Positions 2,467 through 27,128 of a stretch of 32,955 nt of DNA are shown here, one piece after another. The stretch covers positions 1 through 32,955 of the forward strand of contig JAUVDP010000012.1 of the NCBI GenBank assembly GCA_030595255.1. Direction: 5' to 3'. Position 1 is the first letter of the stretch. Each line of letters begins with the position of its first letter. Source of the DNA: Mycoplasmatota bacterium (lineage in GTDB: Bacteria > Bacillota_I > Bacilli_A > Izemoplasmatales > Izemoplasmataceae). The notes under the pieces were generated by a model that saw nothing but the letters and a program-made list of their open reading frames with translations, was not told the origin of the DNA and searched no databases. The translations under genes and the position numbers were made by a program.

Positions 2467-3252
2467 TCACTCCGCATTAGGATAAAACATCTGTATGTCA
2501 CACATAATAAATTCAGATATTAAAATTTGGATATCACTTCTAAGTATCCAATCATAAAATAAATCAGCATTGTGATCGTCTCTATTATGTAAATCAGTAC
2601 TAACTTTAATAACTCCATACTGATTTACAAGTTCATTTGGATCTTCGTAAGCTACTTCTAATTCAAGATTATCTTCCATAGCACAAAAAGTAGCTATATC
2701 AGTTAAAGTATAATATCCACTAAGAGATGTCATATTTAAAGTAGTTCCCATCCCTTGTCCTGTTTCTTTATACCAATCTCCAAATGTAGATACATCATAT
2801 CCAAATGTATCCCATTGCTTTAATTCCTTCATATGAGTTCCTGAAGAATCTCCACGAGAATAAAAATCAAGTTCATTATCATAGATATAATCAAACGTAG
2901 CTTCAACACTATCTAAATCTAAAGCAACTGGACCCACTATTAAAAAATGATTAAACATCACATTACTTCTCTTTTCTCCATACCCTGCATTCATAAAAAT
3001 CATTTCACTATCATAGTCATGAGTAAATAGAATATCTGCTTCTCCCATTTCTCCCATTTCAAGTGCGGCCCCTGTACCTAAAGCAACTACTTTTACTTTC
3101 ACATCGTATTCTTCTTCAAAATAAGGAAGAATATACTCTAAAAAACCTGAGTTATCTAGAGACGTTGTAGTAACTAAAATTAGTTCTTCTTTGTTACATG
3201 AACTTAAAAATATTGTTAGTAATAAAGTCGTTAATAATAATACTTTTTTCAT
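2467..3252 (-). CDS. tupA: tungstate-binding lipoprotein TupA (substrate-binding protein)
   Basis: Lipoprotein signal MKKVLLLTTLLLTIFLSSC, and the TupA-characteristic TTTS motif (LVTTTSLDNSG). SD GAGGTG precedes the ATG. It is the first gene downstream of the riboswitch. Confidence 0.65.
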   Translation of the reverse strand: MKKVLLLTTLLLTIFLSSCNKEELILVTTTSLDNSGFLEYILPYFEEEYDVKVKVVALGTGAALEMGEMGEADILFTHDYDSEMIFMNAGYGEKRSNVMFNHFLIVGPVALDLDSVEATFDYIYDNELDFYSRGDSSGTHMKELKQWDTFGYDVSTFGDWYKETGQGMGTTLNMTSLSGYYTLTDIATFCAMEDNLELEVAYEDPNELVNQYGVIKVSTDLHNRDDHNADLFYDWILRSDIQILISEFIMCDIQMFYPNAE

Positions 3253-3262
3253 CCTATCACCT

Positions 3263-3303
3263 CAAAAAAAGACTTTTCACGCCAAAAAAGGAGTAAAAAG
3301 TCT
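3263..3303 (-). terminator. intrinsic terminator / riboswitch expression platform directly abutting the tupA RBS
   Basis: On the minus strand the sequence reads AGACTTTT-(21 nt)-AAAAGTCT followed by TTTTTTT. It sits immediately 5' of the GAGGTGATAGG-ATG of tupA. Confidence 0.4.
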
Positions 3304-3304
3304 A

Positions 3305-3398
3305 TAATCCTTTCCAAACGTGGGAGGCACATAAATTTCTTTATATACCCATCGGCTTAAAAGTCATAGATACCCTTAGACTTTTAAGCTCGGAATAC
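3305..3398 (-). ncRNA. molybdenum/tungsten cofactor (Moco/Tuco) riboswitch aptamer
   Basis: The minus-strand RNA reads ..UUCCGAGCUUAAAAGUC..GACUUUUAAGCCGAUGGG..GUGCCUCCCACGUUUGGAAAGG. It carries the hallmark CCGAG, GCCUCCC and GGAAAGG blocks of the Moco RNA motif (compare the E. coli moaA leader ..GCCUCCCGUAUCUGGAAAGG). An internal stem GCUUAAAAGUC/GACUUUUAAGC is present. It lies upstream of tupABC-moeA. The element is short, which suggests the P3-lacking tungsten-associated variant. Confidence 0.55.
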
Positions 3399-3411
3399 TT
3401 TTATTAATTAT

Positions 3412-3538: not shown

Positions 3539-5323
3539 ATGTTTGGATACATGGGTAAACTTCTAAGAATCAACTTAACGAATAACTCAATAAAAGTTGA
3601 AGACTTAGATTTAGAACTTGCAAAGAAATTTGTTGGAGGTCGAGGACTAGGAACTAAGATGCTTTACGATGAAATCGATCCTAAAATTGATGCTTTAAGT
3701 CCAGAAAATAAATTATTCTTCATAAATGGACCAATGAGTGGAACTCCTACCCCAACAGGTGGACGTTACATGGTTGTTACAAAATCACCTTTATCAGGAA
3801 CTATTGCTTCATCAAACTCAGGAGGAACTTGGGGTGCACGTCTTAAGTATGCAGGGTATGATGGAATTATCGTTGAAGGTAAAGCTGATATGCCTGTTTA
3901 TATCACAGTTACTGAAGAAAATGTTGAAATTAATGATGCATTTGATTTATGGGGTAAAACAGTTGGAGAAACTACAGATATATTACAAAAAGAAAAGAAA
4001 ACTAATGTATTAGCTATCGGACCTGCAGGAGAAAGATTAAGTAAAATAGCTGCTATCATGAATGATAAAGATAGAGCTGCAGGACGTAGTGGTGTTGGAG
4101 CAGTAATGGGAAGTAAAAACCTTAAAGCTATCGTAGTAACAGGAAACTTAAAAGTTAGTTTATTTGATGAAGAAGCTACTAAAGCTAACAACAAAGAAGC
4201 TACACAAAAACTTAAAGATAATCCAGTTACTGGTGAAGGATTACCAGCTTACGGAACTGCAGTACTAGTTAATGTAATTAACGCTAACGGTATGTTCCCA
4301 ACAAACAATTTCCAAGAAGGTGTATTTGCTAACGCAGAAGATATTTCAGGAGAAACTCTTGCTGAAAAGTATTTAGTTAGAAAAGACCCTTGTCACAGAT
4401 GTCCTATTGGATGTGGACGTTACACTAAAACTGATAAAGTTGAGGGTGGAGGTCCTGAATATGAAACTATCTGGGCATTTGGAGCTGATTGTGGAGTTAA
4501 AGATTTAGCTAAAATTATCGAAGCTAACTATTGGTGTAACCAATATGGTATCGATACTATTTCAGCTGGAGCTACTCTCGCTGCTGCAATGGAATTAAGC
4601 CAAATAGGTTTACTAGATCATGTAGATTTTGAAGGTCATAAACTTGAATTCGGTAACGATGACGCTATCGTTTATTGGACTAAGAAATTAGCTCTAAGAG
4701 AAGGATTCGGAGATGAAATGGCTGATGGATCTTATAGACTATGTGAAAAATATGGTCGTGCTGATTTATCAATGTCAGTTAAGAAACTAGAAATCCCAGC
4801 ATACGACCCTCGTGGTGTTCAAGGGCATGGATTAAACTATGCTACTTCAAACCGTGGTGGATGTCATGTACGTGGATATATGATTAGCCCTGAAATTTTA
4901 GGTTTACCAGCTAAGCTTGAAAGACAAGAACTTAAAGATAAACCTTTCTGGACTAAAACATTCCAAGATTTAACTGCATTTATTGACTCAACTGGTCTTT
5001 GCTTATTTACTTCATTTGCACTTGGTGCTGATGACTATGCTAAGATTTTTAATAGTATAGTAGGAACAAGCTGGAATGGTGACGATGTACTTAAAGCCGG
5101 AGAAAGAATTTATAACATTGAAAAACAATTTAACATAGAAGCAGGAATTTTACCTGAAGAAGATACTCTGCCTGAGAGATTCTTAAAAGTACCAATGCCT
5201 GCTGGTCCTACAGAAGGACATGTCCATCGCTTAAGCGAACTATTACCTGAATATTATGAATTAAGAGGTTGGGACAGTAAAGGTGCACCAACAAAAGAAA
5301 GATTAGAAGATTTAGGATTATAA
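3539..5323 (+). CDS. aor: tungsten-containing aldehyde:ferredoxin oxidoreductase (AOR family)
   Basis: 594 aa. The N-terminus (MFGYMGKLLRINLTN..VGGRGLG) is AOR-type, and the Cys motif DPCHRCPIGCGRY matches the AOR [4Fe-4S] site. The gene sits beside tungstate uptake genes. The SD is strong. Confidence 0.9.
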   Translation: MFGYMGKLLRINLTNNSIKVEDLDLELAKKFVGGRGLGTKMLYDEIDPKIDALSPENKLFFINGPMSGTPTPTGGRYMVVTKSPLSGTIASSNSGGTWGARLKYAGYDGIIVEGKADMPVYITVTEENVEINDAFDLWGKTVGETTDILQKEKKTNVLAIGPAGERLSKIAAIMNDKDRAAGRSGVGAVMGSKNLKAIVVTGNLKVSLFDEEATKANNKEATQKLKDNPVTGEGLPAYGTAVLVNVINANGMFPTNNFQEGVFANAEDISGETLAEKYLVRKDPCHRCPIGCGRYTKTDKVEGGGPEYETIWAFGADCGVKDLAKIIEANYWCNQYGIDTISAGATLAAAMELSQIGLLDHVDFEGHKLEFGNDDAIVYWTKKLALREGFGDEMADGSYRLCEKYGRADLSMSVKKLEIPAYDPRGVQGHGLNYATSNRGGCHVRGYMISPEILGLPAKLERQELKDKPFWTKTFQDLTAFIDSTGLCLFTSFALGADDYAKIFNSIVGTSWNGDDVLKAGERIYNIEKQFNIEAGILPEEDTLPERFLKVPMPAGPTEGHVHRLSELLPEYYELRGWDSKGAPTKERLEDLGL

Positions 5324-6661: not shown

Positions 6662-7315
6662 ATGGGAATAATGAATGATTTTGAACTTGAAAAGTTTAAA
6701 AAGACTAAAGCTTTAATCGTAGGTGTAGGTGGACTAGGTGGATACATTGCATCTAGTTTAGTTAGAATCGGGGTTAGCTCAATTACTATTGTTGATTTTG
6801 ATAAGTTTGATGATTCAAATTTAAATCGTCAACTATTCGCAACTTCAAAAACAATTAATAAATCTAAAGTAGAAGTTGTTAAACTGGAGCTATTAGATAT
6901 TAACCCAGAGTTAAATATCATTGCTATTAATTCAAAATTAGATGAATTATTTGATAAAACTTATTTTGAAGGAATAGATGTTGTATTTGATGCAGTTGAT
7001 AATATAAAATCTAAAGTTTTAATTGAAAAATATTGTTCTATATTTAATATTCCACTTATTCATGGCGCTATAGCGGGATGGTACGGACAACTAGGTATAA
7101 TAATGCCTGGTAGTAACATCTTAAGTGAATTATATAAAGATAAAGAAAAAGGTATTGAATCTGTCTTAATGAGTCCTACTTTTACTCCTGGTATAGTAGC
7201 TAATATGATGATTAGTGAGTTTGTAAAATTTGTATTAAAAAAAGAAGCTCTCGTTAATCAAATTCTTTATATAGACCTTCTTGATCATGAATATCGAATT
7301 ATATACAAAAAATAA
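6662..7315 (+). CDS. ThiF/MoeB-family E1-like adenylyltransferase (short form, with no rhodanese domain or Zn-Cys pairs)
   Basis: ALIVGVGGLGGYIASSLVRIGV (GxGxxG) and VDFDKFDDSNLNRQ, the hallmark of MoeB/ThiF. It is immediately downstream of moaD. Confidence 0.7.
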   Translation: MGIMNDFELEKFKKTKALIVGVGGLGGYIASSLVRIGVSSITIVDFDKFDDSNLNRQLFATSKTINKSKVEVVKLELLDINPELNIIAINSKLDELFDKTYFEGIDVVFDAVDNIKSKVLIEKYCSIFNIPLIHGAIAGWYGQLGIIMPGSNILSELYKDKEKGIESVLMSPTFTPGIVANMMISEFVKFVLKKEALVNQILYIDLLDHEYRIIYKK

Positions 7316-7344
7316 GCAAATCCAATTGGATTTGCTTTTTATTT
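7316..7344. terminator. bidirectional intrinsic terminator
   Basis: GCAAATCCAA-TT-GGATTTGC followed by TTTTTATTT, lying between the convergent genes 6662-7315 (+) and 7343-7678 (-). Confidence 0.7.
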
Positions 7345-7678
7345 ACTCTTCTTCACTAACGTAATCAGTTATAGTACATGCACCTGGATATTCATCATTT
7401 AAATAATTCTCAACACTTTCATTGTGTAGATAAGCCTGTTCTAAAATATTATCATGAGCTTCTTCATCCTGAAGAATATCATTAATATAATATTCATAAA
7501 CTCCATCATCCTTATATATAAATTTATATACATCATCATCTTTAGTACATACAGCAATTAAAGAACCAGATGGAATCTCCATTACATCAGGAGGTGCAAG
7601 TAATTTTTCTCTTAATCCACATCCTGAAAGTAATCCAATAACTAATATTAAACTAAATATTACTATTACTTTTTTCAT
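7343..7678 (-). CDS. small secreted lipoprotein, function unknown
   Basis: Signal peptide plus lipobox MKKVIVIFSLILVIGLLSGC, and an acidic C-terminus. Confidence 0.5.
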   Translation of the reverse strand: MKKVIVIFSLILVIGLLSGCGLREKLLAPPDVMEIPSGSLIAVCTKDDDVYKFIYKDDGVYEYYINDILQDEEAHDNILEQAYLHNESVENYLNDEYPGACTITDYVSEEE

Positions 7679-7718
7679 ATTAACACCTCACAACATATTA
7701 TACTTTATTATAACATAG

Positions 7719-7745
7719 AAAAAAGACCTGCAAAAGATGCAGGTC
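7719..7745 (-). terminator. intrinsic terminator for the 7747-8802 gene
   Basis: GACCTGCA-AAAGA-TGCAGGTC, with a U-tract on the minus strand. Confidence 0.5.
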
Positions 7746-7746
7746 A

Positions 7747-8802
7747 TTATTGTTGATTTTTTAGTTTATAAGCTGAATAAAATAATGTTAACGGTATTAA
7801 TATTGTAATAAATAATAAACTATATTGCAATATTATCCAGTACCATTCGCCTACATATCCAAACCCTAACATTATAATCATATATATAAGAAAAAACGAA
7901 GATAAGATTCCTGAATAAAATAAAATTCTTTTTGTATGTGTAGAACCAATATATTTGTATAAAATCAGCATTAAAGTTGCCACTCCGCCAGTTATTGTAA
8001 CAATAAGTAAACTCATTAATATGAACTCCATATCCCCATTCCCATCAATTATACCAATAATTGTCATTGCAATACCTAGCAATGCAAATATAAAATATGC
8101 TAAAAACCCTATTATTACTGAAATCCTTGATAACTTAAGTAATAACTTATCATTACTACCTTTACTAAGAATCAGTTTTTTTTCATAGTTTTTCTTTTTA
8201 TAATTCTCTTTATACTCTTTTAAGTCTTTTCTAACAGCTCGAAGAGTTTCAATATTATTATTAGCACTCAATTGGATCGACATAGCCAATATTATGATAA
8301 ATTGAGGAAATAAATAAAACACTGGAATAAATATACAAATAATACTAATAATTATTACAGTAATCATAGATAATGATAAATATCTCTTAAGATTTTCAGA
8401 TTCAATTATAACTTTAGTCATTAAGTAAATTCTAATAATCAAATGAGATATAAGAATAACAAATACAATCCATGATAAATAAACAGCTATCCCATAAGTC
8501 CCGTTAAAAATTACATAGTACCCCTTCATTATGAATTCTATATCTGAAGATATAAAATAACCTTCCTCAGCAGTTGTGTGTATAAAGTTAAATAAATATG
8601 CAACAAATACTAAAATTGAAGTAGTAAGATATATTATGTTCCTACGCTTATCAATATCCATATATACCTCTACTTTTTCTCCACCAATAATCTCATTAAT
8701 TGATAGTTTATATAAGATAGATAATCTTTCTAAAATCTCAATATCAGGAATTGATTCTCCTCTTTCCCACTTTGAAACAGCTTGAGTTGATACATTACAC
8801 AA
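7747..8802 (-). CDS. XRE-family HTH regulator fused to a polytopic membrane domain; the 5' end is anomalous (no ATG, and an in-frame TAG replaces a Leu codon of the paralog)
   Basis: ..LTQKDISKLCNVSTQAVSKWERGESIPD is a Cro/C1-type HTH, followed by about 8 TM helices. It is paralogous to 18785-19357. The open frame upstream of TTG 8802 reads TKLRKENNLTQ, but a TAG falls where the paralog has LL. No ATG is available. Confidence 0.5.
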   Translation of the reverse strand: MCNVSTQAVSKWERGESIPDIEILERLSILYKLSINEIIGGEKVEVYMDIDKRRNIIYLTTSILVFVAYLFNFIHTTAEEGYFISSDIEFIMKGYYVIFNGTYGIAVYLSWIVFVILISHLIIRIYLMTKVIIESENLKRYLSLSMITVIIISIICIFIPVFYLFPQFIIILAMSIQLSANNNIETLRAVRKDLKEYKENYKKKNYEKKLILSKGSNDKLLLKLSRISVIIGFLAYFIFALLGIAMTIIGIIDGNGDMEFILMSLLIVTITGGVATLMLILYKYIGSTHTKRILFYSGILSSFFLIYMIIMLGFGYVGEWYWIILQYSLLFITILIPLTLFYSAYKLKNQQ

Positions 8803-9324: not shown

Positions 9325-10416
9325 TCAAAATATCACCATATTATCCTCGTTGTGTGTAGTTTTTCCGTACCAATTTCTTTTATATCTTGCATCTTTAAAA
9401 TTACCTATTTTTTTAATCTTTTGTTCATTTAATAGATTCTTAATAACTTTTTTAATAGTTTCATGTGAAATATCAGGCCATACGAGATGAATCTCTTTTC
9501 TTGAAATAGGATTCCAACTCTTCTTAATTGTTTCTTCAATTCTAAATTTCTTACTTTTCTTTTCGTTATCTACAATTCTAAAACGGCTATTTAACTCAAT
9601 ATGGCAAGAATATAAAGATTCTAGAAAGTTTTCAATAAAAGGATTATAGTCATTACTATTATCATCCCAATTTATTGAAGATAATCTTATAGATTCATAA
9701 TATTCAGATTTATAGTTGTTAATTTGTTTCTCAAATGAAACAAATTCTCCAACGTTATATTCATTTCTAAATAATAGTAATAATGATAATAACCTTGATA
9801 TTCTACCATTACCTTCACTAAATGGTTGAATACAAAGGAAATCGAAAATTACACAAGGTATCAATAACAATCTAGGAATAGCTCTGTCATCTAGCGCTTC
9901 TTTAAAGCCTCTAACTAGCAGTTCCATCGCCCCATTAGTATCTTGTGAACTTACAGGGTTAAGAATAACTTTCCTAGTTCCATTTGGTAAATCCTCGGTA
10001 AATAAAATATCATTATCTTTATAAGCCCCTACTGAGTTTAGTCCTGTATGTAATAATAGTGTTTTATGAAAATCTCTTATAATATATTCATTAAATTGAA
10101 AGCTGTCATAATTAGTAAAAATCTCATTTATTACATCACTATAACCTAAAATTATTCCCTCACTCCGATTAACAGGATCTATGTGTTTGTCAATAAGTGA
10201 TTCAATTCTTTTATCAGTTGCAAAAATACCGTCAATAGCGTTAGATGCTTTTACAGATTGAGTTTTTGAAATATCTCGTAGATTACTAAATACTTTTGGA
10301 TACATTTCACTATTAATCATTCCAACTGCTTGAATTTTTTCAATTGATACTAATAATGACAAAACATTATTAGATATACGGTCTGTCTTTAAAAATGAAT
10401 AATCATAAACTTTCAC
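9325..10416 (-). CDS. Fic/DOC-family protein with a degenerate catalytic motif (QPFSEGNGRISR instead of HPFxEGNGRxxR)
   Basis: ..CIQPFSEGNGRISRLL, where the codon is CAA (Gln) in the place of His. The likely start is GTG 10416, with SD AGGAGTGA 7 nt upstream. The track ORF extends to GTG 10455, which is directly preceded by an in-frame TAG and has no SD. Confidence 0.7.
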   Translation of the reverse strand: MKVYDYSFLKTDRISNNVLSLLVSIEKIQAVGMINSEMYPKVFSNLRDISKTQSVKASNAIDGIFATDKRIESLIDKHIDPVNRSEGIILGYSDVINEIFTNYDSFQFNEYIIRDFHKTLLLHTGLNSVGAYKDNDILFTEDLPNGTRKVILNPVSSQDTNGAMELLVRGFKEALDDRAIPRLLLIPCVIFDFLCIQPFSEGNGRISRLLSLLLLFRNEYNVGEFVSFEKQINNYKSEYYESIRLSSINWDDNSNDYNPFIENFLESLYSCHIELNSRFRIVDNEKKSKKFRIEETIKKSWNPISRKEIHLVWPDISHETIKKVIKNLLNEQKIKKIGNFKDARYKRNWYGKTTHNEDNMVIF

Positions 10417-10430
10417 ATAATCACTCCTTA

Positions 10431-10520
10431 CTAGGTATATTTTATCATATTGCACCTAGTAAATCAATAATAATTCTTTTTACTAGGTATTTAATACAAT
10501 GTATTACCTAGTAAAATAAA
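10431..10520. promoter_or_regulatory. two tandem copies of a 9-bp inverted repeat (TACTAGGTA-N15-TACCTAGTA) over the fic promoter and 5'UTR
   Basis: Copy 1 is at 10431-10467 and overlaps the fic RBS region. Copy 2 is at 10484-10516. Both were read directly from the sequence. Confidence 0.3.
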
Positions 10521-11707: not shown

Positions 11708-11791
11708 TGGTGCGGTCGATGAGATTTGAACTCACACATCCTAAGATACTACCCCCTCAAGGTAGCGCGTCTGCCGTTCCGCCACGACCGC
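11708..11791 (-). tRNA. tRNA-Leu (anticodon GAG), class II with a long variable arm, CCA encoded
   Basis: The reverse complement is GCGGTCGTGGCGGAACGGCAGACGCGCTACCTTGAGGGGGTAG..GTGAGTTCAAATCTCATCGACCGCACCA. Acceptor pairing is GCGGTCG/CGACCGC. The anticodon stem is CTACC/GGTAG with loop TTGAGGG. The T-loop is TTCAAAT. Confidence 0.85.
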
Positions 11792-19495: not shown

Positions 19496-19528
19496 ATAAA
19501 AAAGCAAGATCAATTGATTCTTGCTTTA
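19496..19528 (-). terminator. terminator overlapping the last codons of 19510-20289; second copy of the repeated hairpin
   Basis: AAGCAAGATCAATTGATTCTTGCTT, with TTTTTATTT on the minus strand. Confidence 0.45.
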
Positions 19529-20289
19529 AATTTACTTATAACTTCTTTTATATTAATAAATGGTAAAGACATTATACTCCATAGTGACATATAAAATATA
19601 AATGCTCCTGGAATTATATAGACAAATGGAATTGGTCTTTCTACTAATACTCCGTTTATTTCTTTTTGATAAGTAATCCATGGTGCTGCTGATTCAAATA
19701 AGACATACACATCATTACCACTACCCCAAATACCCATATAATTTGGCAAGTAGTTTCTTAAACCTACTTCTACAAAGAAAGCTGTTAAAGCCATATTATA
19801 CATCGCACCAAACATTAAAAGTAAAAACATATAACCTAAATGTTTAATACTAGGAACATGTAATTTCCATGCTATTAATAATAATGGTACTCCAACTAAT
19901 ATTACATGTGCAAAGAAGAATCTAATAGTGTTGTAAGCAAATAGTGTATCACCTGCTATATTATTTGGATATAGAAGTGAAGAGAATGCAAATACAGCAC
20001 CTAGATAATACATGTAATCTTTTAATATCTTATTCTTAGATAACATAAAGAACGGGTAAACTAAAGTTGAAAATCCACATAAATCAGTAAAGAATAGCTC
20101 ATACGTTTTTAAATCAGATTCTAGCCAATACCGAGAAAAATGAATTACCCAAGCTAAAATTGTTAAGCTAAAAAGAAACCAATATTTAAAACTATTAGAT
20201 CTATTTTTAAAAGCATAGTATAATCCAATAATTACTAAGGGTACTAACCCAGTATAAAATAAATGATTTAAACTAAACATATCTAGCAT
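19510..20289 (-). CDS. polytopic integral membrane protein (possibly the YwaF/TIGR02206-like family), paralog of 22100-22861
   Basis: About 8 TM helices. Roughly 50% identical to the paralog over the full length (..KYWFLFSLTILAW.HFSR..IRFFFAH.IL..). ATG 20289 has SD GGAGGGA. The track start is a TTG at 20304. Confidence 0.5.
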   Translation of the reverse strand: MLDMFSLNHLFYTGLVPLVIIGLYYAFKNRSNSFKYWFLFSLTILAWVIHFSRYWLESDLKTYELFFTDLCGFSTLVYPFFMLSKNKILKDYMYYLGAVFAFSSLLYPNNIAGDTLFAYNTIRFFFAHVILVGVPLLLIAWKLHVPSIKHLGYMFLLLMFGAMYNMALTAFFVEVGLRNYLPNYMGIWGSGNDVYVLFESAAPWITYQKEINGVLVERPIPFVYIIPGAFIFYMSLWSIMSLPFINIKEVISKFKARIN

Positions 20290-20354
20290 AATATATCCCT
20301 CCAAGTCGTAAATATTAAAATACTTGTCTATATAATTATACTACAAATATTTAT

Positions 20355-20390
20355 AAAAAAATACATTCCTTTTTGGAATGTATTTTATTT
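20355..20390. terminator. bidirectional terminator
   Basis: ATACATTCC-TTTTT-GGAATGTAT flanked by A7 and TTTATTT. It overlaps the ABC-F stop codon. Confidence 0.5.
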
Positions 20391-22008
20391 AATCTTTATA
20401 TAATTTCGAAACTTGTTCTTTAGCTTTTTCACTACCCAAGAAATTGTCAAATGATCCTTCAAAAGTATAAGAACCTAAATCTCCAACTTCCACTACTTTA
20501 TTAGTAACTGTGTTTAATAGTCTATGATCGTGTGATATTAATAGTAAAGAACCTCTATATTCTTTTAAGCCTGTATTTACGGATGAAATTGATTCTAAGT
20601 CTAAATGGTTTGTAGGTTGATCCATTAATAATGTATTAACTTCAGATAACATTAACTTAGATAACATACAACGCATCTTCTCTCCACCAGATAGATACTG
20701 AACTTTTTTAAATACTTGATCTCCACTAAATAACATTCTACCAAGGAATCCTCTAATATATGATTCGTGAGGGTCTTTTGAATATTGTCTAAGCCAATCA
20801 ATTAAAGAGAGTTTTGGATCAATAAAGTAATCTGTATTATCAAGTGGTAATAAAGAGTGAGTTACAGTTTGTCCCCATTTAATTGTCCCAGTATCTGGTT
20901 CAACTTCACCTTCTAGTACTTTTAGTAATAATGTTTTAGTCAAATCATCTTTTCCTGTAATAGCTACTTTATCATCTCTACTCACAACAAACGATACGTT
21001 CTCAAATATTTTTTTGCCTTCAAATGAAGCTGATAAATTTTCTACTGCTAGTACATCTTTACCAAGATTTCGTTCTATATCAAATCCAACAAAAGGATAC
21101 TTTCTTGATGAAGGTACTATTTCATCAAGATTAATTTTTTCTAAAGATTTTTTTCTTGAAGTTGCTTGAGAAGATTTTGATGCATTAGCGCTAAATCTAG
21201 CTATAAATGCTTTTAACTCTTTAATTTTATCTTCTTTTTTCTTATTAGAAGCAAGCATTAATCTTTGAGCTAATTCTGATGACTGTTTCCAGAAATCATA
21301 GTTACCTGGATAAAGCTTAACTGCGAAATAATCTATATCAACCATGTGAGTACATACTTTATTTAAGAAATGTCTATCATGTGATACTGTAATAACTGTT
21401 TTATCAAAATCTAGTAAGAAATTTTCAAGCCAATCAATTGCTTCAAAGTCTAGGTGGTTTGTAGGTTCATCTAGTAATAAAATATCGGGATCACCAAACA
21501 ATGCTTGAGCTAACAATATCTTAACTTTATCTTGCCCAATTACTTCACTCATCTTTTTATCAAAGTTATCACTATTTACTTTCAATCCATTTAATAACTT
21601 CTCAGCTTCAACTTCAGCATTCCATCCATCAAGTTCAGCAAACTCAATTTCAAGTTCGGCGGACTTCATTCCATCTTCATCAGTAAATGGATCTCTTGCA
21701 TATAACTCTTCTTTTTCTTTCATTATGTCAAATAATCTTTTATGTCCCATAATAACAGTCTCAATAACACCAAAATCATCATATTCATAATGATCTTGTT
21801 TTAATACTGCCATTCTATTTCCTTTTTCAATAATTATGTCTCCTCTAGTAGACTCTTTATCTCCTGAAAGAATCTTTAAGAAAGTAGACTTACCGGACCC
21901 ATTAGCCCCTATTACACCATAGCAATTACCTGGTATAAATTTAATATTTACATCTTCAAATATTTTCTTATCAGAAAATATTAAATCTAAATTTGATACT
22001 GTGATCAT
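20389..22008 (-). CDS. ABC-F family ATPase (two tandem ABC domains, no TM domain; translation-factor/ARE-like)
   Basis: Domain 1 has GANGSGKST and LLLDEPTNHLD. Domain 2 has LSGGEKMRCMLS and LLMDQPTNHLD. The inter-domain linker is about 65 aa and K/R-rich. ATG 22008 has SD AGGAG 8 nt upstream. The track start at GTG 22041 is less likely. Confidence 0.8.
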   Translation of the reverse strand: MITVSNLDLIFSDKKIFEDVNIKFIPGNCYGVIGANGSGKSTFLKILSGDKESTRGDIIIEKGNRMAVLKQDHYEYDDFGVIETVIMGHKRLFDIMKEKEELYARDPFTDEDGMKSAELEIEFAELDGWNAEVEAEKLLNGLKVNSDNFDKKMSEVIGQDKVKILLAQALFGDPDILLLDEPTNHLDFEAIDWLENFLLDFDKTVITVSHDRHFLNKVCTHMVDIDYFAVKLYPGNYDFWKQSSELAQRLMLASNKKKEDKIKELKAFIARFSANASKSSQATSRKKSLEKINLDEIVPSSRKYPFVGFDIERNLGKDVLAVENLSASFEGKKIFENVSFVVSRDDKVAITGKDDLTKTLLLKVLEGEVEPDTGTIKWGQTVTHSLLPLDNTDYFIDPKLSLIDWLRQYSKDPHESYIRGFLGRMLFSGDQVFKKVQYLSGGEKMRCMLSKLMLSEVNTLLMDQPTNHLDLESISSVNTGLKEYRGSLLLISHDHRLLNTVTNKVVEVGDLGSYTFEGSFDNFLGSEKAKEQVSKLYKD

Positions 22009-22079
22009 ACTATCAACTCCTAGCCTTTTAAATACTACCACAACAGTAGGGAAATTCCTACAAATTAGTTCTTTTTTTT

Positions 22080-22108
22080 ACAAAAAAAGGATAGAATTTC
22101 TATCCTTT
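22080..22108 (-). terminator. terminator of 22100-22861
   Basis: AAAGGATAGAA-TT-TCTATCCTTT is a 10-11 bp perfect stem, with T7 on the minus strand. Confidence 0.5.
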
Positions 22109-22861
22109 ACTCTTTTTAAAATTAATAAACGGAACAGACATACTAAACCAAACAGGAAATGCGAATAAAATAGTACTTGGAAGCATATACACAAACGGTA
22201 TTGGTCTTTCCGTTAGAATACCATTAAATTCAGTTTCGTATGTGGCCCAAGGTGCAAATATTAGTGCCACATCACTAAATACATCGTCCCCATTACCCCA
22301 AACACCCATATAATTTTCTAAATAGGGTTTAAGACCAGTTTCAACAAAAAATGCTGAAAGTGCCATATTATAAACCGCACCCATTAACACAAATAGAAAC
22401 ATCCATCCTAAATTCTTAATATTTGGTATATGCAGTTTCCATGAAGCTGAAAGAACAGGAACCATTATAAGTATTAAATGTGCAAAGAAAAATCTAATTG
22501 AGTTAAATGCAAATATAGGATCTCCTTCTACTGTATATGGATAACCAAGTGATAAGAATGCAAAAAATCCTCCAACATAATACATGTAGTCTTTAGCAAG
22601 TTTTGATTTTGATAAAAATAAAAACGGATAAAGTAATGTAGATAATCCACATAAATTCGTAAAAAACAGTTGGTAAGTTCTTAAATTATCAGAATAAATA
22701 ATACGAGAAAAATGTACTAACCAAGCTAAAATTGTTAAAGAGAATAAAAACCAATACTTGAATTTATCTGATTTAGATTTAAAACCATGATGAACTACAA
22801 CTATAATTAAAAATGCAGTTATTACCCATAAATAATGATTTAAAGTAAATATATTTATCAT
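22100..22861 (-). CDS. polytopic integral membrane protein, paralog of 19510-20289
   Basis: Same length and topology as the paralog, with conserved blocks. The start MINIFTLNHYLW aligns to MLDMFSLNHLFY. Confidence 0.5.
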   Translation of the reverse strand: MINIFTLNHYLWVITAFLIIVVVHHGFKSKSDKFKYWFLFSLTILAWLVHFSRIIYSDNLRTYQLFFTNLCGLSTLLYPFLFLSKSKLAKDYMYYVGGFFAFLSLGYPYTVEGDPIFAFNSIRFFFAHLILIMVPVLSASWKLHIPNIKNLGWMFLFVLMGAVYNMALSAFFVETGLKPYLENYMGVWGNGDDVFSDVALIFAPWATYETEFNGILTERPIPFVYMLPSTILFAFPVWFSMSVPFINFKKSKG

Positions 22862-22909
22862 AAAAATCATCCTATCTTATTGTATTTACATATCTTTAGT
22901 AACTATTAA

Positions 22910-22938
22910 ATTATAACATTTGAATTTTTGCTAGTCAA
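22910..22938 (-). promoter_or_regulatory. near-consensus sigma-A promoter (TTGACT-17-TATAAT) for 22100-22861
   Basis: Reverse complement: -35 at 22933-22938, a 17-nt spacer, and -10 at 22910-22915. Confidence 0.45.
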
Positions 22939-22944
22939 CTAAGT

Positions 22945-22985
22945 AAAAAAAAGAATATTGTTTACTATACAATATTCTTTTTTAT
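22945..22985. terminator. bidirectional terminator ending the TIR operon
   Basis: AAGAATATTGT-TTACTAT-ACAATATTCTT flanked by A6 and T6. Confidence 0.5.
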
Positions 22986-23287
22986 TAAATTATAATACCT
23001 AAAAGTGAATTAATTTTTTTAAGTTTTCTCTTAATTTTTCTACTATTCCAAATAGAATGTTTTAGATGCTTTTTAATTGCTTCTAAATACTTATAGACTT
23101 TCTTTAAATCTCTTTTACTTATTACTTTGTTACTATTTACTGAATATGATACTTTTTCCTTTAATTCAAATAAGTATTTTTTATATTTTTCGTTTTTTAC
23201 ATTTTCTCTTACTTTTTCCAATTCCTTTGCTAAATCAAATAAATTAGTAATTGTAATTCTTCTTTTGTTTTCTATATCTTTACCCAT
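22985..23287 (-). CDS. small lysine-rich (very basic) hypothetical protein, the last gene of the TIR operon
   Basis: 100 aa, about 30% K/R, predicted helical. SD TAGGTGA. It lies 8 nt downstream of the SPFH gene. Confidence 0.4.
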   Translation of the reverse strand: MGKDIENKRRITITNLFDLAKELEKVRENVKNEKYKKYLFELKEKVSYSVNSNKVISKRDLKKVYKYLEAIKKHLKHSIWNSRKIKRKLKKINSLLGIII

Positions 23288-23295
23288 AATATCAC

Positions 23296-24159
23296 CTACA
23301 TCTTACTTCCACAGTTACTGCAAAACTTTGCACCAACTGGATTTTTGTGTCCACATTCATTACAGAATGCGAACTTTGGTTTATCGTGTTTATTTTCTTT
23401 TCTTAATTCTTTTCTTTGATCTTTTTCCATATCAAATTTCATCTTATTAATAATATTATCTTTTTTAGCACTAGTCATTAAATTAATGAAGTCTTCATCA
23501 TAGAAGAATCTTTCAATAAAGAATTTATTTACCTCTACTCCATACTCACTAAAGATAGGTTGTAGTATTTCTTTTATATCAGAGGCGATTTTCTTCTCTT
23601 TTGTAGTAATAACAGCTATATCATTAATACCGTATTTATTCTTAACAAATACAGTTGCTATAGCATTTCTAATCTCTACGTTAAGCTCTGATTTAAAAAA
23701 CTCTTTAACCATTTCTTGAGTAAGTTTTTCATGTGCTCCTTGTACTTTTGAGAATAGCTTCATTGAGTTGTTTACAGAAAACTTATACGCTCCATTCGCT
23801 CCTACAAAAGTATGTAGATCAAAGTCTCTATCGTATACATCAATTTTATTTGGTGTTCCCCATTTATTCTCTAATTGAGCTAATCTATTAATATAGTATA
23901 CTTGACAATCTTCACTAGTTTTAGCATCCTTAAATAATAATTGAAACAATGATTGTCTCTTATCATTAATTAAGTAATACTCTTCTCTATCATTAAACGA
24001 TCCTAGATATACTCCTTTTCTTAAAAATATAATATCGCAATCTTTTCTAGAATATATTTTAGATTTTTGTGTTAAAACTGATACATCACTTTGCCATATA
24101 ACAGCGCTTGGATCTCCTTTAAATATAACATCATTAGGTTTAATCTTTTCCTTGCTCAT
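23296..24159 (-). CDS. SPFH/band-7-like protein (COG4260 'putative virion core protein', YdjI-like) with a C-terminal zinc ribbon
   Basis: 287 aa. The C-terminus has FCNECGHKNPVGAKFCSNCG (CxxC-x10-CxxC). The N-terminal 250 aa are of soluble alpha/beta type. SD AAAGGGGAGA. It lies 2 nt after the upstream gene. Confidence 0.45.
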   Translation of the reverse strand: MSKEKIKPNDVIFKGDPSAVIWQSDVSVLTQKSKIYSRKDCDIIFLRKGVYLGSFNDREEYYLINDKRQSLFQLLFKDAKTSEDCQVYYINRLAQLENKWGTPNKIDVYDRDFDLHTFVGANGAYKFSVNNSMKLFSKVQGAHEKLTQEMVKEFFKSELNVEIRNAIATVFVKNKYGINDIAVITTKEKKIASDIKEILQPIFSEYGVEVNKFFIERFFYDEDFINLMTSAKKDNIINKMKFDMEKDQRKELRKENKHDKPKFAFCNECGHKNPVGAKFCSNCGSKM

Positions 24160-24161
24160 AA

Positions 24162-24986
24162 TTATCTCCCCTTTTTAATTCTATATTTTATAGTCTTTAA
24201 CTTTTTTTCTGCTTCAATCTTTATATGTTTCTTAAATACTGGGTCACTATTTATTGAATCTTTAACTGGGAACTCATCAATTCTTTTAATTCCAAAATAA
24301 ATTCCGCTTATTAACCCTATTACTATTACTAAATGAATGTTATATTCAAAGTCATTTATAGTTTCTGATACTATTTTAGTACCATCTAAAATAGATGATA
24401 ATAATAATACAGTTAATCCTATTAACAAAAATGATATTGATGATTTTACAAACTCTTTTATTATTAACGAAAATGAACTTCTAAATAATCTATTTGAATT
24501 AATTCTATTAATATTAAAATTTGGTAAATACACTTTTTCTACATTATTAGTAATTAATTCAGGCAGTTTCTTATTTTTATAATCATCTTTATATACATCC
24601 AACATTATCTTACTCATATCTTTCCCAATCTTTTTATCGACTAATGTTTGATATATTTCTAATGTTGTTTCTTTAGGAAAATCTCTAGTTAATAACATTA
24701 GCTTGTTTTCCTCGTAATAAACTCTTAAAAATGCATATTCTATATACTTGTCAACATATTTCTTACTTGCTCCACTATAATCCTTTTTTATGTTAGCAAG
24801 ATAATACGCATTCCTAATAACCTCTTTAAGTTCTTTTGAATACTTGTCTTTATGTTCATTAGGTAATATTTTCTTAATGAAAACTTCATCATCTAGTTGT
24901 TGTTTCTCATATAATATATTAGCTCCACATGAATCACATATTAATGTCATTTCATTAAGTCTTTTATTACATTCTCTACATATCAT
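24162..24986 (-). CDS. N-terminal zinc-ribbon protein with two C-terminal TM helices (YdjG-like membrane anchor candidate)
   Basis: MICRECNKRLNEMTLICDSCGAN (CxxC-x12-CxxC). TM helices at ..ISFLLIGLTVLLLSSIL.. and ..IHLVIVIGLISGIYFGI... SD GAGGGGGA. It overlaps the TIR gene by 11 nt. Confidence 0.5.
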   Translation of the reverse strand: MICRECNKRLNEMTLICDSCGANILYEKQQLDDEVFIKKILPNEHKDKYSKELKEVIRNAYYLANIKKDYSGASKKYVDKYIEYAFLRVYYEENKLMLLTRDFPKETTLEIYQTLVDKKIGKDMSKIMLDVYKDDYKNKKLPELITNNVEKVYLPNFNINRINSNRLFRSSFSLIIKEFVKSSISFLLIGLTVLLLSSILDGTKIVSETINDFEYNIHLVIVIGLISGIYFGIKRIDEFPVKDSINSDPVFKKHIKIEAEKKLKTIKYRIKKGR

Positions 24987-26937
24987 TTTCTGTCCCCCTC
25001 ACAAGTAATTCTATTCTACTGTTTTTATTTCTCTTTTTGTGATAACAGTGAAGGATTAAGTCATCTGCAAATTCATTATATTTGTCAGAATCAAATAATT
25101 TCTGGAAAATTACTGAATCTAAAATTGCTGTTCTTTCCTTTTTCCTTAATTTATATATTGCATCATATGCATCATATGTATTTTTAGCTTTTATTTTAGA
25201 CAAGAATAGATATAAGTACTTATCATATGAAGAATTATCATAATAGAATAGTTCTTTTGCAGATTTATAAGCACCTTTAAAATTACCATCAATAAGTAAA
25301 GAATCAGTTCTTTCATATGTTTTTCTTATAACTTCAGATAGTTCTTGAAGATTCACATTTCTTTTTTCAGTTCCTTGAGCAAAGTTATTGTAATATCTTT
25401 TATGATATTCCTTCAAATGACTCCGTTCAAAGTCTTTGTGATTCTTAATTTTATCGAAGTCTTCAAATAAATATTCTAATTCTTTAATAAGTTTTTCATT
25501 ATCAATTCTCATATTTACAGCAAAATCAGTTGAGAATTCATGATTTATTATCGAGTTCCCCCATAAACATAAAATATGGTTACTACAATGCGAATTTAAG
25601 AAATCTATTTTAGTTCCATCAAGAGTGTTCTTCTCATTTAAATACTCTATTAATCTTGAATATATTAGCTCCTCATATTTACTAATATTCTCTGGATACT
25701 CATCACTTCTAAAATCTGCATATCTTTTATATTGTTTAAAAGGTACTTGTTCATAATAATCTAGCAATTGGCTTAAAGAAGATGTTCTCTTTACATTGTT
25801 ATTAAAGACTTCTGTGCTATCAAATTTATTTTTAGCAAGAAATAATAACCACCATGCTTCACTTGAATCTGGACTAACTCCAAGTGCATCTTTAATAGTA
25901 TTTGAAGCTTCGTCGTAGTTAGAGTTCAATAATTCAACTCTAGATCTATTCATCTTCTTTGTAAACTCGTCTATTTCAGATGCTTGTTTTCTACTTCTTC
26001 TATTATTTTCCTTTTTAATCTCACTATTCAATATTTCATAAACCCTTTTTCTTAATGTTTTTAGTGCTGCATCTTTATCCTCTGTTGCATCTACCCATTT
26101 ATTACCATCAAAGAAATATTTAAAAACTGAAGTATGTTTTGAGGTATCAATTTTATATTCTATTCTTCTTTTCTTTAGTTTTGTTGCGAATTCAATTTCT
26201 TTTTTTACATCTCTACTGATCATAGCATCATGTGATGAAATTACTAGGAAAAGCCTAGATTTTGTAATTGCATCTTCAATGTTGTTCCAATAATTCTCAT
26301 TATCATTGGGTCTTAAGTTTCTAGTAGAGATCCAACAGGTATTACTATCCTCTTCTAGTGTATTTAAAACTTCATTAGCGTATTCTAATTCAGTTGATCT
26401 AAATGAAATAAAGACATCTCTAGGAATAAGTGAATAGTTCTCTTCATCAATAAGTTTTTGTCTATACACTTCTTTATATTTACCAAGTTTCGATAAATCA
26501 TTATTAGAAATAAACGTTTCTACTAAGCCCCTATCTCTAATATCACTATAACCTATTATATGATCTATTATAGTTTCTATTTCCTCAGGAAGATTACTAA
26601 TAATCTGTTCATAAAAATCAAATAAGTATCTTCTAGCACCAAAAGAATAATTTGCGTAAGCATAAAAATAATTTCCTAAATAGTCTTTAGGAATTAAACT
26701 TAAAATTTCTTTTGAAAAATGTAAAATATTTTTGTGATCATCAGATAGTATTGATTTTTGAAGATTACTTCTAAGCTTTTTAATATTAGAAATATCTTTT
26801 ATCGATTTCCCCGCAAAATCTTTTCCATTTTCTAATAAAAAAGTATTACCACATGCATCACATTTCTTTGTTATATCTTCGGTTTCTACATCTAATGTAT
26901 TACCACAAGTAGTACACGCCACCCTATAAAGTTCCAT
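24976..26937 (-). CDS. zinc-ribbon + TIR-domain + TPR-like repeat protein (candidate NADase effector)
   Basis: The N-terminus has CTTCGNTLDVETEDITKKCDACGN (CxxC-x14-CxxC). The TIR core runs about residues 170-260: DVFISFRSTELEYANEVLNTLEE..RLFLVISSHDAMISRDVKKEIEFA, with βA DVFISF and S..S(R)..EI matching the SxxxxxSRWCLDEL catalytic-Glu block. The C-terminal 350 aa are helical-repeat/TPR-like. ATG 26937 has SD AGGAGG 6 nt upstream. The track start at 27015 is a 26-aa out-of-context N-extension. Confidence 0.7.
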   Translation of the reverse strand: MELYRVACTTCGNTLDVETEDITKKCDACGNTFLLENGKDFAGKSIKDISNIKKLRSNLQKSILSDDHKNILHFSKEILSLIPKDYLGNYFYAYANYSFGARRYLFDFYEQIISNLPEEIETIIDHIIGYSDIRDRGLVETFISNNDLSKLGKYKEVYRQKLIDEENYSLIPRDVFISFRSTELEYANEVLNTLEEDSNTCWISTRNLRPNDNENYWNNIEDAITKSRLFLVISSHDAMISRDVKKEIEFATKLKKRRIEYKIDTSKHTSVFKYFFDGNKWVDATEDKDAALKTLRKRVYEILNSEIKKENNRRSRKQASEIDEFTKKMNRSRVELLNSNYDEASNTIKDALGVSPDSSEAWWLLFLAKNKFDSTEVFNNNVKRTSSLSQLLDYYEQVPFKQYKRYADFRSDEYPENISKYEELIYSRLIEYLNEKNTLDGTKIDFLNSHCSNHILCLWGNSIINHEFSTDFAVNMRIDNEKLIKELEYLFEDFDKIKNHKDFERSHLKEYHKRYYNNFAQGTEKRNVNLQELSEVIRKTYERTDSLLIDGNFKGAYKSAKELFYYDNSSYDKYLYLFLSKIKAKNTYDAYDAIYKLRKKERTAILDSVIFQKLFDSDKYNEFADDLILHCYHKKRNKNSRIELLVRGTENDM

Positions 26938-27025
26938 TCTCATCCTCCTATAAAAATACAAAAAAAAGTGAAAAAATCGCTTTTCACCTTGTATTATATT
27001 CTCCCTGCATAGCAACTATATATTA

Positions 27026-27034
27026 ATTATACAA
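27026..27034 (-). promoter_or_regulatory. extended -10 (TTGTATAAT) promoter for the TIR operon
   Basis: The reverse complement of 27026-27034 is TTGTATAAT, about 85 nt upstream of the start codon. Confidence 0.3.
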
Positions 27035-27076
27035 TACGAAGTTCAGTATTTAAAGATTTTTTGATAATTCATATAC

Positions 27077-27111
27077 AAAAAAAACAACACTTGATAACCC
27101 CAAGTGTTGTT
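27077..27111 (-). terminator. terminator of rplY/ctc
   Basis: AACAACACTTG..CAAGTGTTGTT followed by T8 on the minus strand. Confidence 0.5.
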
Positions 27112-27128
27112 TAATTTAACTATTTATA

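Follow-up and report, generated by a model that had tools for sequence, protein, structure and literature searches.

What could bring a TIR domain, a component common to the immune systems of animals, plants and bacteria, into one operon with a soluble SPFH protein? The question is raised by four genes, here called g1 to g4, on the minus strand of a 32,955-nucleotide stretch of DNA from a marine, wall-less Mycoplasmatota bacterium (assembly GCA_030595255.1, contig JAUVDP010000012.1), which was analysed at its full length and is referred to as the window. The first gene, g1 (24976-26937), encodes 653 amino acids from an ATG placed behind AGGAGG, and its product is a soluble protein made of a zinc ribbon, a helical domain, a TIR domain and a TPR-like region, with no transmembrane (TM) helix predicted. 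It is translationally coupled to g2 (24162-24986), the gene for a 274-residue zinc-ribbon protein with two TM helices, which is followed by g3 (23296-24159), encoding a 287-residue soluble SPFH protein of the Band_7_1 type with a C-terminal zinc ribbon, and by g4 (22985-23287), encoding a basic helical protein of 100 residues that is the obligate downstream partner of the SPFH-zinc-ribbon gene. To our knowledge, all characterised bacterial TIR systems pair the TIR protein with a soluble sensor or a signal-activated effector. The TIR-SPFH unit described here is real, conserved and uncatalogued, and appears in no defence catalogue or paper searched. With a confidence that falls somewhat short of an even chance, we read its products as an SPFH-scaffolded, membrane-anchored TIR enzyme, the assembly and activity of which would respond to membrane perturbation. 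If this were true, the state of the membrane would constitute a new class of input or output for TIR systems, with a flotillin/stomatin-like scaffold, joined in sister systems by Snf7-type ESCRT-III and a Vps4-like ATPase, as the partner of the TIR protein.

Linkage of the TIR, SPFH and g4 genes across genomes

About 25 full-length orthologs of g1, with 46-81% identity, were found in Izemoplasma-type genomes. A preliminary description of this DNA had proposed synteny in related genomes as a check on the association, and the four genes do stand together and in order in L003, L010, L048 and L050-L052, while three of the four are present in L049 and L061, two contigs that are cut at one end. Beyond the Izemoplasma clade, the N-terminal module of g1 (zinc ribbon, helical domain and TIR) recurs at 35-46% identity with other C-termini, which consist of TM segments with LRR_5, RCC1, Big or Flg_new repeats after them, of TM segments only, or of Sel1 repeats. 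When one genome per GTDB species was scanned by pattern, 35 family loci were identified in Izemoplasmatales, Clostridia, Christensenellales, Coprobacillus (Erysipelotrichales), Flexilinea (Chloroflexota) and an Elusimicrobiaceae metagenome-assembled genome (MAG; Elusimicrobiota), and these, together with L001, L003, L004, L006 and the window, make up 40 non-redundant family loci. The family analysis is restricted to listed proteins carrying the N-terminal module; an exhaustive search of representatives was rejected as a measure of family size, since its profile caught LRR_5 repeats and the 14,222 matches at 1e-30 were inflated by giant repeat proteins. When iterated hidden Markov models (HMMs) were run on the six-frame open reading frames (ORFs) within 10 kb of the TIR module, an SPFH homolog was detected in 25/40 family loci, on the same strand in 23 of these 25, and in 11 of the 16 loci flanked on either side by 5 kb or more, and Pfam Band_7_1 or Band_7 confirmed most of the short, divergent matches. 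Loci with unrelated TIR proteins contained none (0/5). By an estimate from general knowledge, SPFH genes are typically present in few copies per genome, so the number expected by chance in the roughly 0.6 Mb of flanks lies well below one.

The same association emerged when the SPFH family was the only query used to fetch loci (15 metagenome contigs and two contig look-ups). Immediately downstream of the SPFH gene, a g4 homolog was present in 13/13 loci with room for it, and every contig with enough flank carried a zinc-ribbon-TIR gene next to or near the SPFH gene. Gene orders vary among TIR-g2-SPFH-g4, TIR-SPFH-g4 and SPFH-g4-TIR. The linkage holds from both the TIR and the SPFH side, and the conserved unit is therefore the trio of TIR, SPFH-zinc-ribbon and g4 genes, which co-occur across phyla.

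The TIR protein g1

The N-terminal zinc ribbon of g1 (C8, C11, C26 and C29; 26851-26916, minus strand) has the form CxxC-x14-CxxC, as first described, and is invariant in 24 orthologs. Next comes a helical domain specific to the family (residues 35-166; 26440-26835, minus strand) and rich in invariant residues, which is helical in the AlphaFold2 (AF2) model and always precedes the TIR domain throughout the family. The TIR domain itself (residues 172-300; 26038-26424, minus strand), with the BB-loop RNLRPND, was recognised by Pfam TIR_2 at 3.9e-12 over residues 175-295. In an AF2 model built on 24 orthologs, with a mean predicted local distance difference test (pLDDT) score of 83, the TIR part was matched by Foldseek to the TIR domains of MyD88, PdTIR, SARM1 and SPARTA with a probability of 1.0 and TM-scores of up to 0.74. 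The predicted TIR fold is thus confirmed both by profile and by modelled structure. Searches of the PDB, whether with the g1 sequence alone or with its profile, returned designed TPRs only, the best TIR match having an E of 0.34, and no NCBIfam model fits g1, g2 or g4, g3 giving only noise. After the TIR domain, a long helix leads into about 330 all-helical residues that are confidently modelled (helical-repeat domain at 25018-25980, minus strand; pLDDT about 90). The TPR-like character assigned earlier to this C-terminus is partly shown: the model is all-helical and gives weak fold matches to TPR proteins, and at the sequence level a single TPR motif (residues 338-370) is present.

Glu247, whose codon lies at 26197-26199 on the minus strand, occupies the catalytic-Glu position of NAD-cleaving TIRs and belongs to the motif …VISSxxAMxSxDVKKE…, which, by motif position and not by superposition, we take to be the strand-C/helix-C block carrying the catalytic Glu of these enzymes. 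It is invariant in the ortholog alignments and is kept in 142 of the 143 family members that bear the module, a set consisting mostly of representatives at 50% identity or less; in the same set, the four ribbon cysteines are kept in 138-139 members and the BB-loop R-N-L-R-P-x-D is nearly invariant. Both features that had been noticed from the sequence, the TIR fold and, as judged by its motif, the catalytic-position Glu, thus stand, and the pattern of conservation fits an enzyme with a constrained assembly interface.

A non-catalytic role would account for part of these data. The BB loop of g1 can be aligned with that of MyD88 (RDVLPG), which is the classic interface between TIR domains, and the best structural match is to MyD88 TIR filaments (TM-score 0.74). 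Together with the housekeeping-like context and vertical inheritance of the locus, and with the nature of SPFH proteins as scaffolds (PMC8581546), this would suit a TIR domain that serves as a homotypic adaptor or assembly module and forms with the SPFH protein a sub-membrane platform for envelope stress or membrane organisation, with no NAD+ chemistry. The near-universal retention of Glu247 is, however, hard to explain for a pure scaffold, and MyD88 has a Gln at the aligned position. The bacterial TIR domains studied so far are overwhelmingly NAD+-processing, which also counts against a non-catalytic protein, and we regard this explanation as quite unlikely.

Many family members resemble Toll-like receptors and MyD88 in having a cytoplasmic TIR domain with a BB-loop R-x-x-x-P, one TM helix and an extracellular ectodomain of leucine-rich or other repeats. 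They differ from them in that the TIR domain is N-terminal, the repeats are of the LRR_5/BspA, RCC1 or Big type and the catalytic-position Glu is present, whereas g1 itself has neither TM helix nor ectodomain. The reversed Toll-like-receptor layout, with an N-terminal cytoplasmic zinc-ribbon-TIR part, one TM helix and a large extracellular LRR_5/RCC1/Big/Flg_new region, is exemplified by the 4039-residue product of L004:9284-16927 and by P0027, P0028, P0032 and P0033. Several genomes hold two or more family copies (L017/L018, L038/L039, L033/L034 and L023/L026), and tandem TIR-family pairs occur in L016, L021 and L031.

The SPFH protein g3, its partner g4 and the relation to samGHI

In Pfam, g3 matches Band_7_1 at 3.4e-15 and Zn_Ribbon_1 at 7e-8, and Band_7 is also matched by g3 and by its long and short homologs in related loci. 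The protein ends, as first noted, in a CxxC-x10-CxxC zinc ribbon (C266, C269, C280 and C283; 23299-23367, minus strand) that is invariant in 23 homologs. The SPFH profile found no solved relative in the PDB. The product of g4, for which a Lys/Arg content of about 30% had been given, contains 29% of these residues and a conserved H-x-x-W-N-x-x-x-I-K-R/K motif, and has no family match. The possibility that it is a miniature ESCRT-III protein was rejected, as hhalign against the Snf7-like proteins of the sister loci described below gave a probability of 0.2%. A hydropathy scan detected no TM helix in g3 or g4, so both proteins need a membrane partner.

The closest described relative of this arrangement is the pspA-ydjGHI (samGHI) operon of Bacillus subtilis. 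YdjI/SamI, a soluble protein composed of a Band-7 domain and a zinc ribbon, is recruited by YdjG/H, which are membrane proteins, and serves to nucleate PspA, an ESCRT-III homolog (PMC8581546; bioRxiv 10.64898/2026.02.06.704340). YdjG consists of two zinc ribbons, an NTF2-like domain and one TM helix, and a survey of phage shock protein (PSP) systems reported the Band-7 plus zinc-ribbon protein (YdjI) with PspA, YdjG and YdjH, and with no TIR immune domain (PMC11237479). The likeness is evident in g3, which is soluble and shares with YdjI the architecture of a Band_7_1 SPFH domain plus a C-terminal zinc ribbon, in the adjoining gene for a zinc-ribbon membrane protein that could recruit the SPFH protein, and in the sister loci, where the SPFH gene stands beside an ESCRT-III-superfamily gene in parallel to YdjI and PspA. 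The differences are as clear. The window operon lacks PspA and the TPM-domain protein YdjH, no TPM match being obtained in g1-g4 or the flanking genes; it has g4 as an extra obligate small partner and a TIR protein as the conserved partner; and the ESCRT-III genes of the sister loci are of the Snf7 type and accompanied by an AAA+ ATPase, in contrast to PspA. The absence of PspA from the operon had been correctly pointed out, with neither PspA_IM30 nor Snf7 matched. The likening of g2 to YdjG, in turn, is not supported: g2 has one ribbon, a helical region and two TM helices, with no NTF2-like match, and no resemblance beyond a zinc ribbon plus TM helices was confirmed, so that it is not a demonstrable YdjG homolog. 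The locus is not a SamGHI module because PspA, YdjH and the YdjG architecture are absent.

It could still be argued that the operon is a PspA-less samGHI variant into which a TIR gene was inserted by chance, with no coupling between TIR and SPFH, given the YdjI architecture of g3 and the combination of zinc ribbon and membrane helices in g2 (PMC11237479). The linkage of TIR, SPFH and g4 is, however, reciprocal and extends over several phyla in varied gene orders, the operon has no YdjH or PspA gene, g2 lacks the second ribbon and the NTF2-like match, and g2 tracks the TIR gene and not the SPFH gene, as HR1-type loci keep g1 and g2 without g3. Because the synteny is reciprocal, a chance insertion is essentially excluded, and the probability that we leave to it is very small. 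The preliminary picture of a TIR protein occupying the first position of a psp-like operon gives way to that of a conserved TIR-SPFH-g4 triad, with g2 specific to one lineage. If this triad works as proposed, the soluble SPFH-zinc-ribbon protein of the YdjI/SamI type would gain a second, PspA-independent client.

g2, a candidate membrane anchor

The N-terminal zinc ribbon and the two C-terminal TM helices first ascribed to g2 were both recovered. The ribbon (C3, C6, C17 and C20; 24927-24980, minus strand) has the form CxxC-x10-CxxC and is invariant in g2 orthologs, the middle part of the protein is helical, and a hydropathy scan placed the hydrophobic hairpin at residues 182-200 and 215-233 (24288-24443, minus strand), with both helices present in all g2 orthologs. 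No match to g2 was found among Pfam, NCBIfam or PADLOC models. Homology between the N-termini of g2 and g1 was considered and discarded, since hhalign aligned only the 19-residue zinc ribbon, with a probability of 44%.

The distribution of g2 follows that of the TM helices of the TIR protein. TM helices after the module are found in none of 26 Izemoplasma-type proteins versus 86 of 116 other family members, and g2 has been seen only beside TIR orthologs that lack them. TIR proteins of 809-897 amino acids align with g1 over its full length and then add 3-5 extra TM helices, and no g2 lies beside these TM-tailed proteins (L006, L012, L013, L056 and L057). Because no homology between g2 and the TM tails could be detected, g2 is read as a functional substitute for them, a separate anchor. 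The operon is thus better read as a conserved TIR-SPFH-g4 triad with g2 as a lineage-specific anchor.

Sister loci with ESCRT-III-like genes

Clustering of the neighbouring ORFs revealed helical proteins of 165-226 amino acids in many non-Izemoplasma loci. Their Snf7 matches in Pfam exceed the gathering cutoff in two cases (27.8 and 29.3 bits), and a profile made of them gives a full-length match to Vps24 (E 0.006) as well as matches to CdvB and CHMP3. The Snf7-like genes are followed by genes for single-domain classical AAA+ ATPases of 380-390 amino acids with a helical N-terminal domain, whose best NCBIfam matches are CDC48, PAN and CdvC (CdvC 194 bits, below cutoff) and which show a weak Vps4_C match. 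Proteases composed of a zinc ribbon and a Trypsin_2 domain and Xre-type HTH genes are found in the same loci, and in L018 and L019 the Snf7-like, AAA+, SPFH-zinc-ribbon and g4-like genes are contiguous. Two SPFH subtypes can be distinguished, one long, with a zinc ribbon and followed by g4, as in the window, and one short and ribbon-less, of about 200 residues (510 in L016), which has no g4 and is followed by the gene for a conserved, uncharacterised 316-348-residue protein and then by the Snf7-like gene. The TIR-SPFH pair is repeatedly embedded in membrane-remodelling gene sets. Because these sister systems join TIR and SPFH to a Snf7-type ESCRT-III protein, a Vps4-like AAA+ ATPase and a protease, it can be argued that the input or output of the system is membrane damage or remodelling.

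These observations raise the possibility that the window operon is the reduced, wall-less version of a widespread and undescribed pathway, in which a membrane-anchored TIR protein scaffolded by SPFH would be accompanied, in its fuller forms, by Snf7-type ESCRT-III and Vps4-like AAA+ proteins; we consider this conceivable but on the unlikely side. The closest named relatives of g1 and g3 are those of Candidatus Izimaplasma/Izemoplasma, which are free-living, wall-less Bacillota. If the proposal were true, it would connect TIR 'immune' chemistry in bacteria with membrane repair or remodelling of the ESCRT type, and pairs of Snf7-like and Vps4-like proteins would be present in bacteria, which a recent review regards as lacking Vps4-like ATPases (PMC7619361). 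Links between SPFH and ESCRT proteins were noted in archaea only by an ESCRT survey (PMC10936438).

Loci of the Snf7-like/AAA+ type occur in Clostridia, Flexilinea and other Bacillota MAGs, at L018:15424-17166, L019:7077-8864, L034:13975-15738, L032:6380-6982, L013:5065-5562, L025:5557-7323 and L016:3928-4512 and 6724-7944. The short SPFH subtype is found at L029:7022-9859, L013:3301-6277, L034:11687-13962, L016:1366-4512 and L025:3851-6144; L029 and L013 continue with the gene for a multi-TM protein (about 240 residues, weak DUF4271 match) and then the TIR gene. Protease and small Xre HTH genes are located at L025:7304-8137, L028:8111-8872, L021:19001-19852, L041:15433-16698, L029:5992-7044, L016:1004-1402 and L025:3483-3839, and in L029 the zinc-ribbon protease is fused to an Xre-type HTH. 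The sister proteases match PADLOC RT-Protease_XI, and the AAA+ ATPases match IetA and TRIP13 at a generic level.

Inheritance and relation to defence systems

The preliminary description took the flanking genes to be consistent with an inserted accessory module, a view that the composition and surroundings of the locus do not support. The GC content of g1-g4 and their GC content at third codon positions (GC3) equal those of the neighbouring genes, and three related metagenomic contigs likewise place the operon close to homologs of the Na+/H+ exchanger and NuoF/FDH genes of the window. Across these contigs and L048/L049, identities to the window are 56-59% for the TIR protein g1, 39-40% for g2, 64-70% for the SPFH protein g3 and 52-72% for g4, as compared with 44-56% for the neighbouring metabolic genes, so that the operon diverges as these genes do. 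No relatives of g1 were retrieved by tblastn against plasmids and phages or in a scan of IMG/VR, and no mobile-element gene is present in the neighbourhood of the window operon, which is flanked by housekeeping or metabolic genes. Such a pattern marks a chromosomal operon that is inherited vertically and kept under purifying selection, and not a recent insertion. The flanks of 10 non-Izemoplasma loci encode 90 proteins, mainly housekeeping ones with a few of defence type, a mix that points in neither direction as regards defence islands.

These data bear directly on whether the operon is a dedicated anti-phage abortive infection system, in which membrane perturbation by a phage would be sensed and the TIR protein would deplete NAD+ or produce a Thoeris-like lethal or arresting signal. 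Several features speak for such a role. The TIR domain carries a catalytic-position Glu and gives marginal ThsB matches, in Pfam (ThsB_TIR, 22.5 bits against a cutoff of 21.2, secondary under TIR_2) and in PADLOC (E 0.0017-0.0039). The members in Clostridia are multi-copy and have hypervariable extracellular tails (LRR_5, RCC1, Big, Flg_new), as expected for conflict or recognition genes; the sister AAA+ ATPases match PADLOC IetA (3e-43) and TRIP13 and are accompanied by serine protease and Xre HTH genes; and Hhe, PDC-S37 or SIR2-like genes are present in a few flanks. Nevertheless, PADLOC gave no match for g2-g4 and g1 reached only an E of about 1e-3, the IetA match is a generic one to classical AAA+ proteins (NCBIfam IteA 124 bits versus a cutoff of 510), and no effector with a known signal-binding domain is encoded. 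Furthermore, the window and the other Izemoplasma loci are placed among housekeeping and metabolic genes and not in defence islands, their composition is native, they diverge at the pace of neighbouring metabolic genes with regional synteny partly kept, relatives on plasmids, phages or in IMG/VR were not found, and the TIR module is extremely conserved, not diversifying. On balance, we hold a dedicated anti-phage function to be unlikely.

Thoeris and other TIR anti-phage systems offer a further comparison. The operon shares with them a bacterial TIR domain with a catalytic-position Glu in a small operon with non-TIR partners, but g2-g4 have no known signal-sensing or killing domain, being a putative anchor, an SPFH scaffold and a basic protein, g1 adds zinc-ribbon, helical and TPR-like domains of its own, and the TIR-SPFH locus belongs neither to a defence island nor to a mobile element. 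It is not a Thoeris system because no adjacent gene supplies a signal-binding and a toxic domain. A 2025 preprint on Thoeris distinguishes 29 configurations in types I-XI and leaves SPFH, Band 7, flotillin and zinc ribbons unmentioned (bioRxiv 10.64898/2025.12.03.692087), and full-text literature searches for TIR with SPFH, Band-7 or zinc ribbon returned no description of the association. That the locus belongs to no assigned system, as had been suspected, agrees with both the database and the literature searches. The operon is partly like SamGHI, with a soluble SPFH-zinc-ribbon protein that a membrane partner would recruit, and partly like TIR systems, with a probable NAD+-processing enzyme, and is a member of neither.

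Proposed mechanism

With these comparisons in place, the proposal of an SPFH-scaffolded, membrane-anchored TIR enzyme can be given in steps. The products of g1-g4 would form a single sub-membrane assembly, whose core would comprise the zinc-ribbon-helical-TIR protein, the soluble SPFH-zinc-ribbon scaffold and the basic helical partner of about 100 residues as a putative SPFH cofactor. The TIR protein of most lineages has one or more TM segments of its own, and in Izemoplasmatales, where it has none, g2 would supply the anchor. By analogy with the recruitment of SamI/YdjI by SamG/H, the membrane component may bring the oligomeric SPFH protein to the inner side of the membrane, where the oligomer would hold or concentrate TIR proteins. 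A membrane perturbation would then alter the assembly, and the ensuing TIR-TIR association might start NAD+ cleavage, leading to NAD+ depletion or to a nucleotide signal. We infer the physical interaction of the products, the NADase activity, the trigger and the role in either defence or envelope stress. The proposed logic is like that of HflK/C-FtsH and other SPFH cages, in which a membrane SPFH oligomer confines or concentrates a client enzyme and thereby controls its activity (cited in PMC10936438); the differences are that HflK/C are TM proteins of the Band_7 family with a protease as client, while g3 is soluble, of the Band_7_1 type and provided with a zinc ribbon, and its proposed client is a TIR protein.

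Several results weigh against this reading. About a third of the family loci show no SPFH gene within reach, and the HR1-type Izimaplasma genomes (L001, L002, L008 and L009) have an overlapping g1-g2 pair with no SPFH gene or g4 at the locus; for these reasons SPFH is not indispensable in cis. As regards the anchor, the AF2 model of g2 is poor (pLDDT 54), too poor for a fold search, and the notion of g2 as the split-off TM tail of the TIR protein was rejected, since HMM and phmmer comparisons with the tails of 11 fused members recovered composition only. The conserved Glu247 is no proof of NADase activity. Finally, neither Snf7 nor PspA_IM30 was matched among g1-g4, and the window operon has no ESCRT-III or Vps4-like gene; with nothing of the ESCRT-III kind in it, and no relationship between g4 and the Snf7-like proteins, the link of the Izemoplasma operon to membrane repair is indirect. 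The system is directly testable, in that it is compact (four genes, 4 kb), has a key residue in E247, and occurs in fused and split variants that predict which proteins touch.

Operon layout and genomic surroundings

The four minus-strand ORFs and their junctions were confirmed as first reported, with an 11-nt overlap between g1 and g2, a gap of 2 nt between g2 and g3 and one of 8 nt between g3 and g4, and a purine-rich Shine-Dalgarno sequence ahead of each of the four starts. A single promoter and a single terminator had been proposed to bracket the genes. The terminator stands as an intrinsic hairpin (22947-22983, minus strand; 15-bp stem, -13.1 kcal/mol, z = -4.7) followed by a U-run, which the g4 stop directly abuts, and the next gene downstream has a strong promoter of its own at 22910-22938. 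The promoter has positional support: a sigma-70-like TTTAAA-17-TATAAT (27026-27054, minus strand) lies upstream of g1, between this gene and the intrinsic terminator of rplY (27082-27112, minus strand; 13-bp stem and T-run), which forms the upstream boundary of the operon. The promoter tool did not score TTGTATAAT as an extended -10. Promoter-like matches are not enriched over shuffles in this AT-rich stretch (30 versus 32.5; DNA of 27% GC), and the call is positional only because consensus matches are no commoner than in shuffled sequence. Taken together, g1-g4 look like one operon.

The upstream gene, rplY, was identified by Pfam as Ribosomal_L25p/TL5_C. In several Izemoplasma-type genomes, the position directly upstream of the TIR gene, held by rplY in the window, is occupied by a gene for 419-434 amino acids with no Pfam match (L001:8584-9843; L003:8576-9871; L010 and L011, where the ORF has 434 residues), and in L001 and L002 the g1-g2 pair is followed by an acetyltransferase gene. 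The window genes are otherwise those of an ordinary chromosome, with an ABC transporter, ThiF/ThiS, a formate-dehydrogenase/NuoF-like cluster, a Nudix protein and a GGDEF-EAL protein. The operon is followed directly downstream by two paralogous genes for membrane proteins of the TMEM164 family (19510-20304 and 22100-22870), with an ABC-F ATPase gene (20389-22041) between them. A tRNA gene is located at 11711-11791, and a Fic/DOC-family protein (9325-10455) and a 351-residue HTH_3 protein (7747-8802) are encoded in an AT-rich stretch. A molybdenum cofactor (Moco)/tungsten riboswitch (3291-3407, minus strand; 81 bits) lies upstream of a PBP-like/ABC transporter cluster and is divergent from an aldehyde:ferredoxin oxidoreductase gene (genes at 2467-3252 and 3539-5323), and the riboswitch/oxidoreductase region is the GC-rich stretch of the window.

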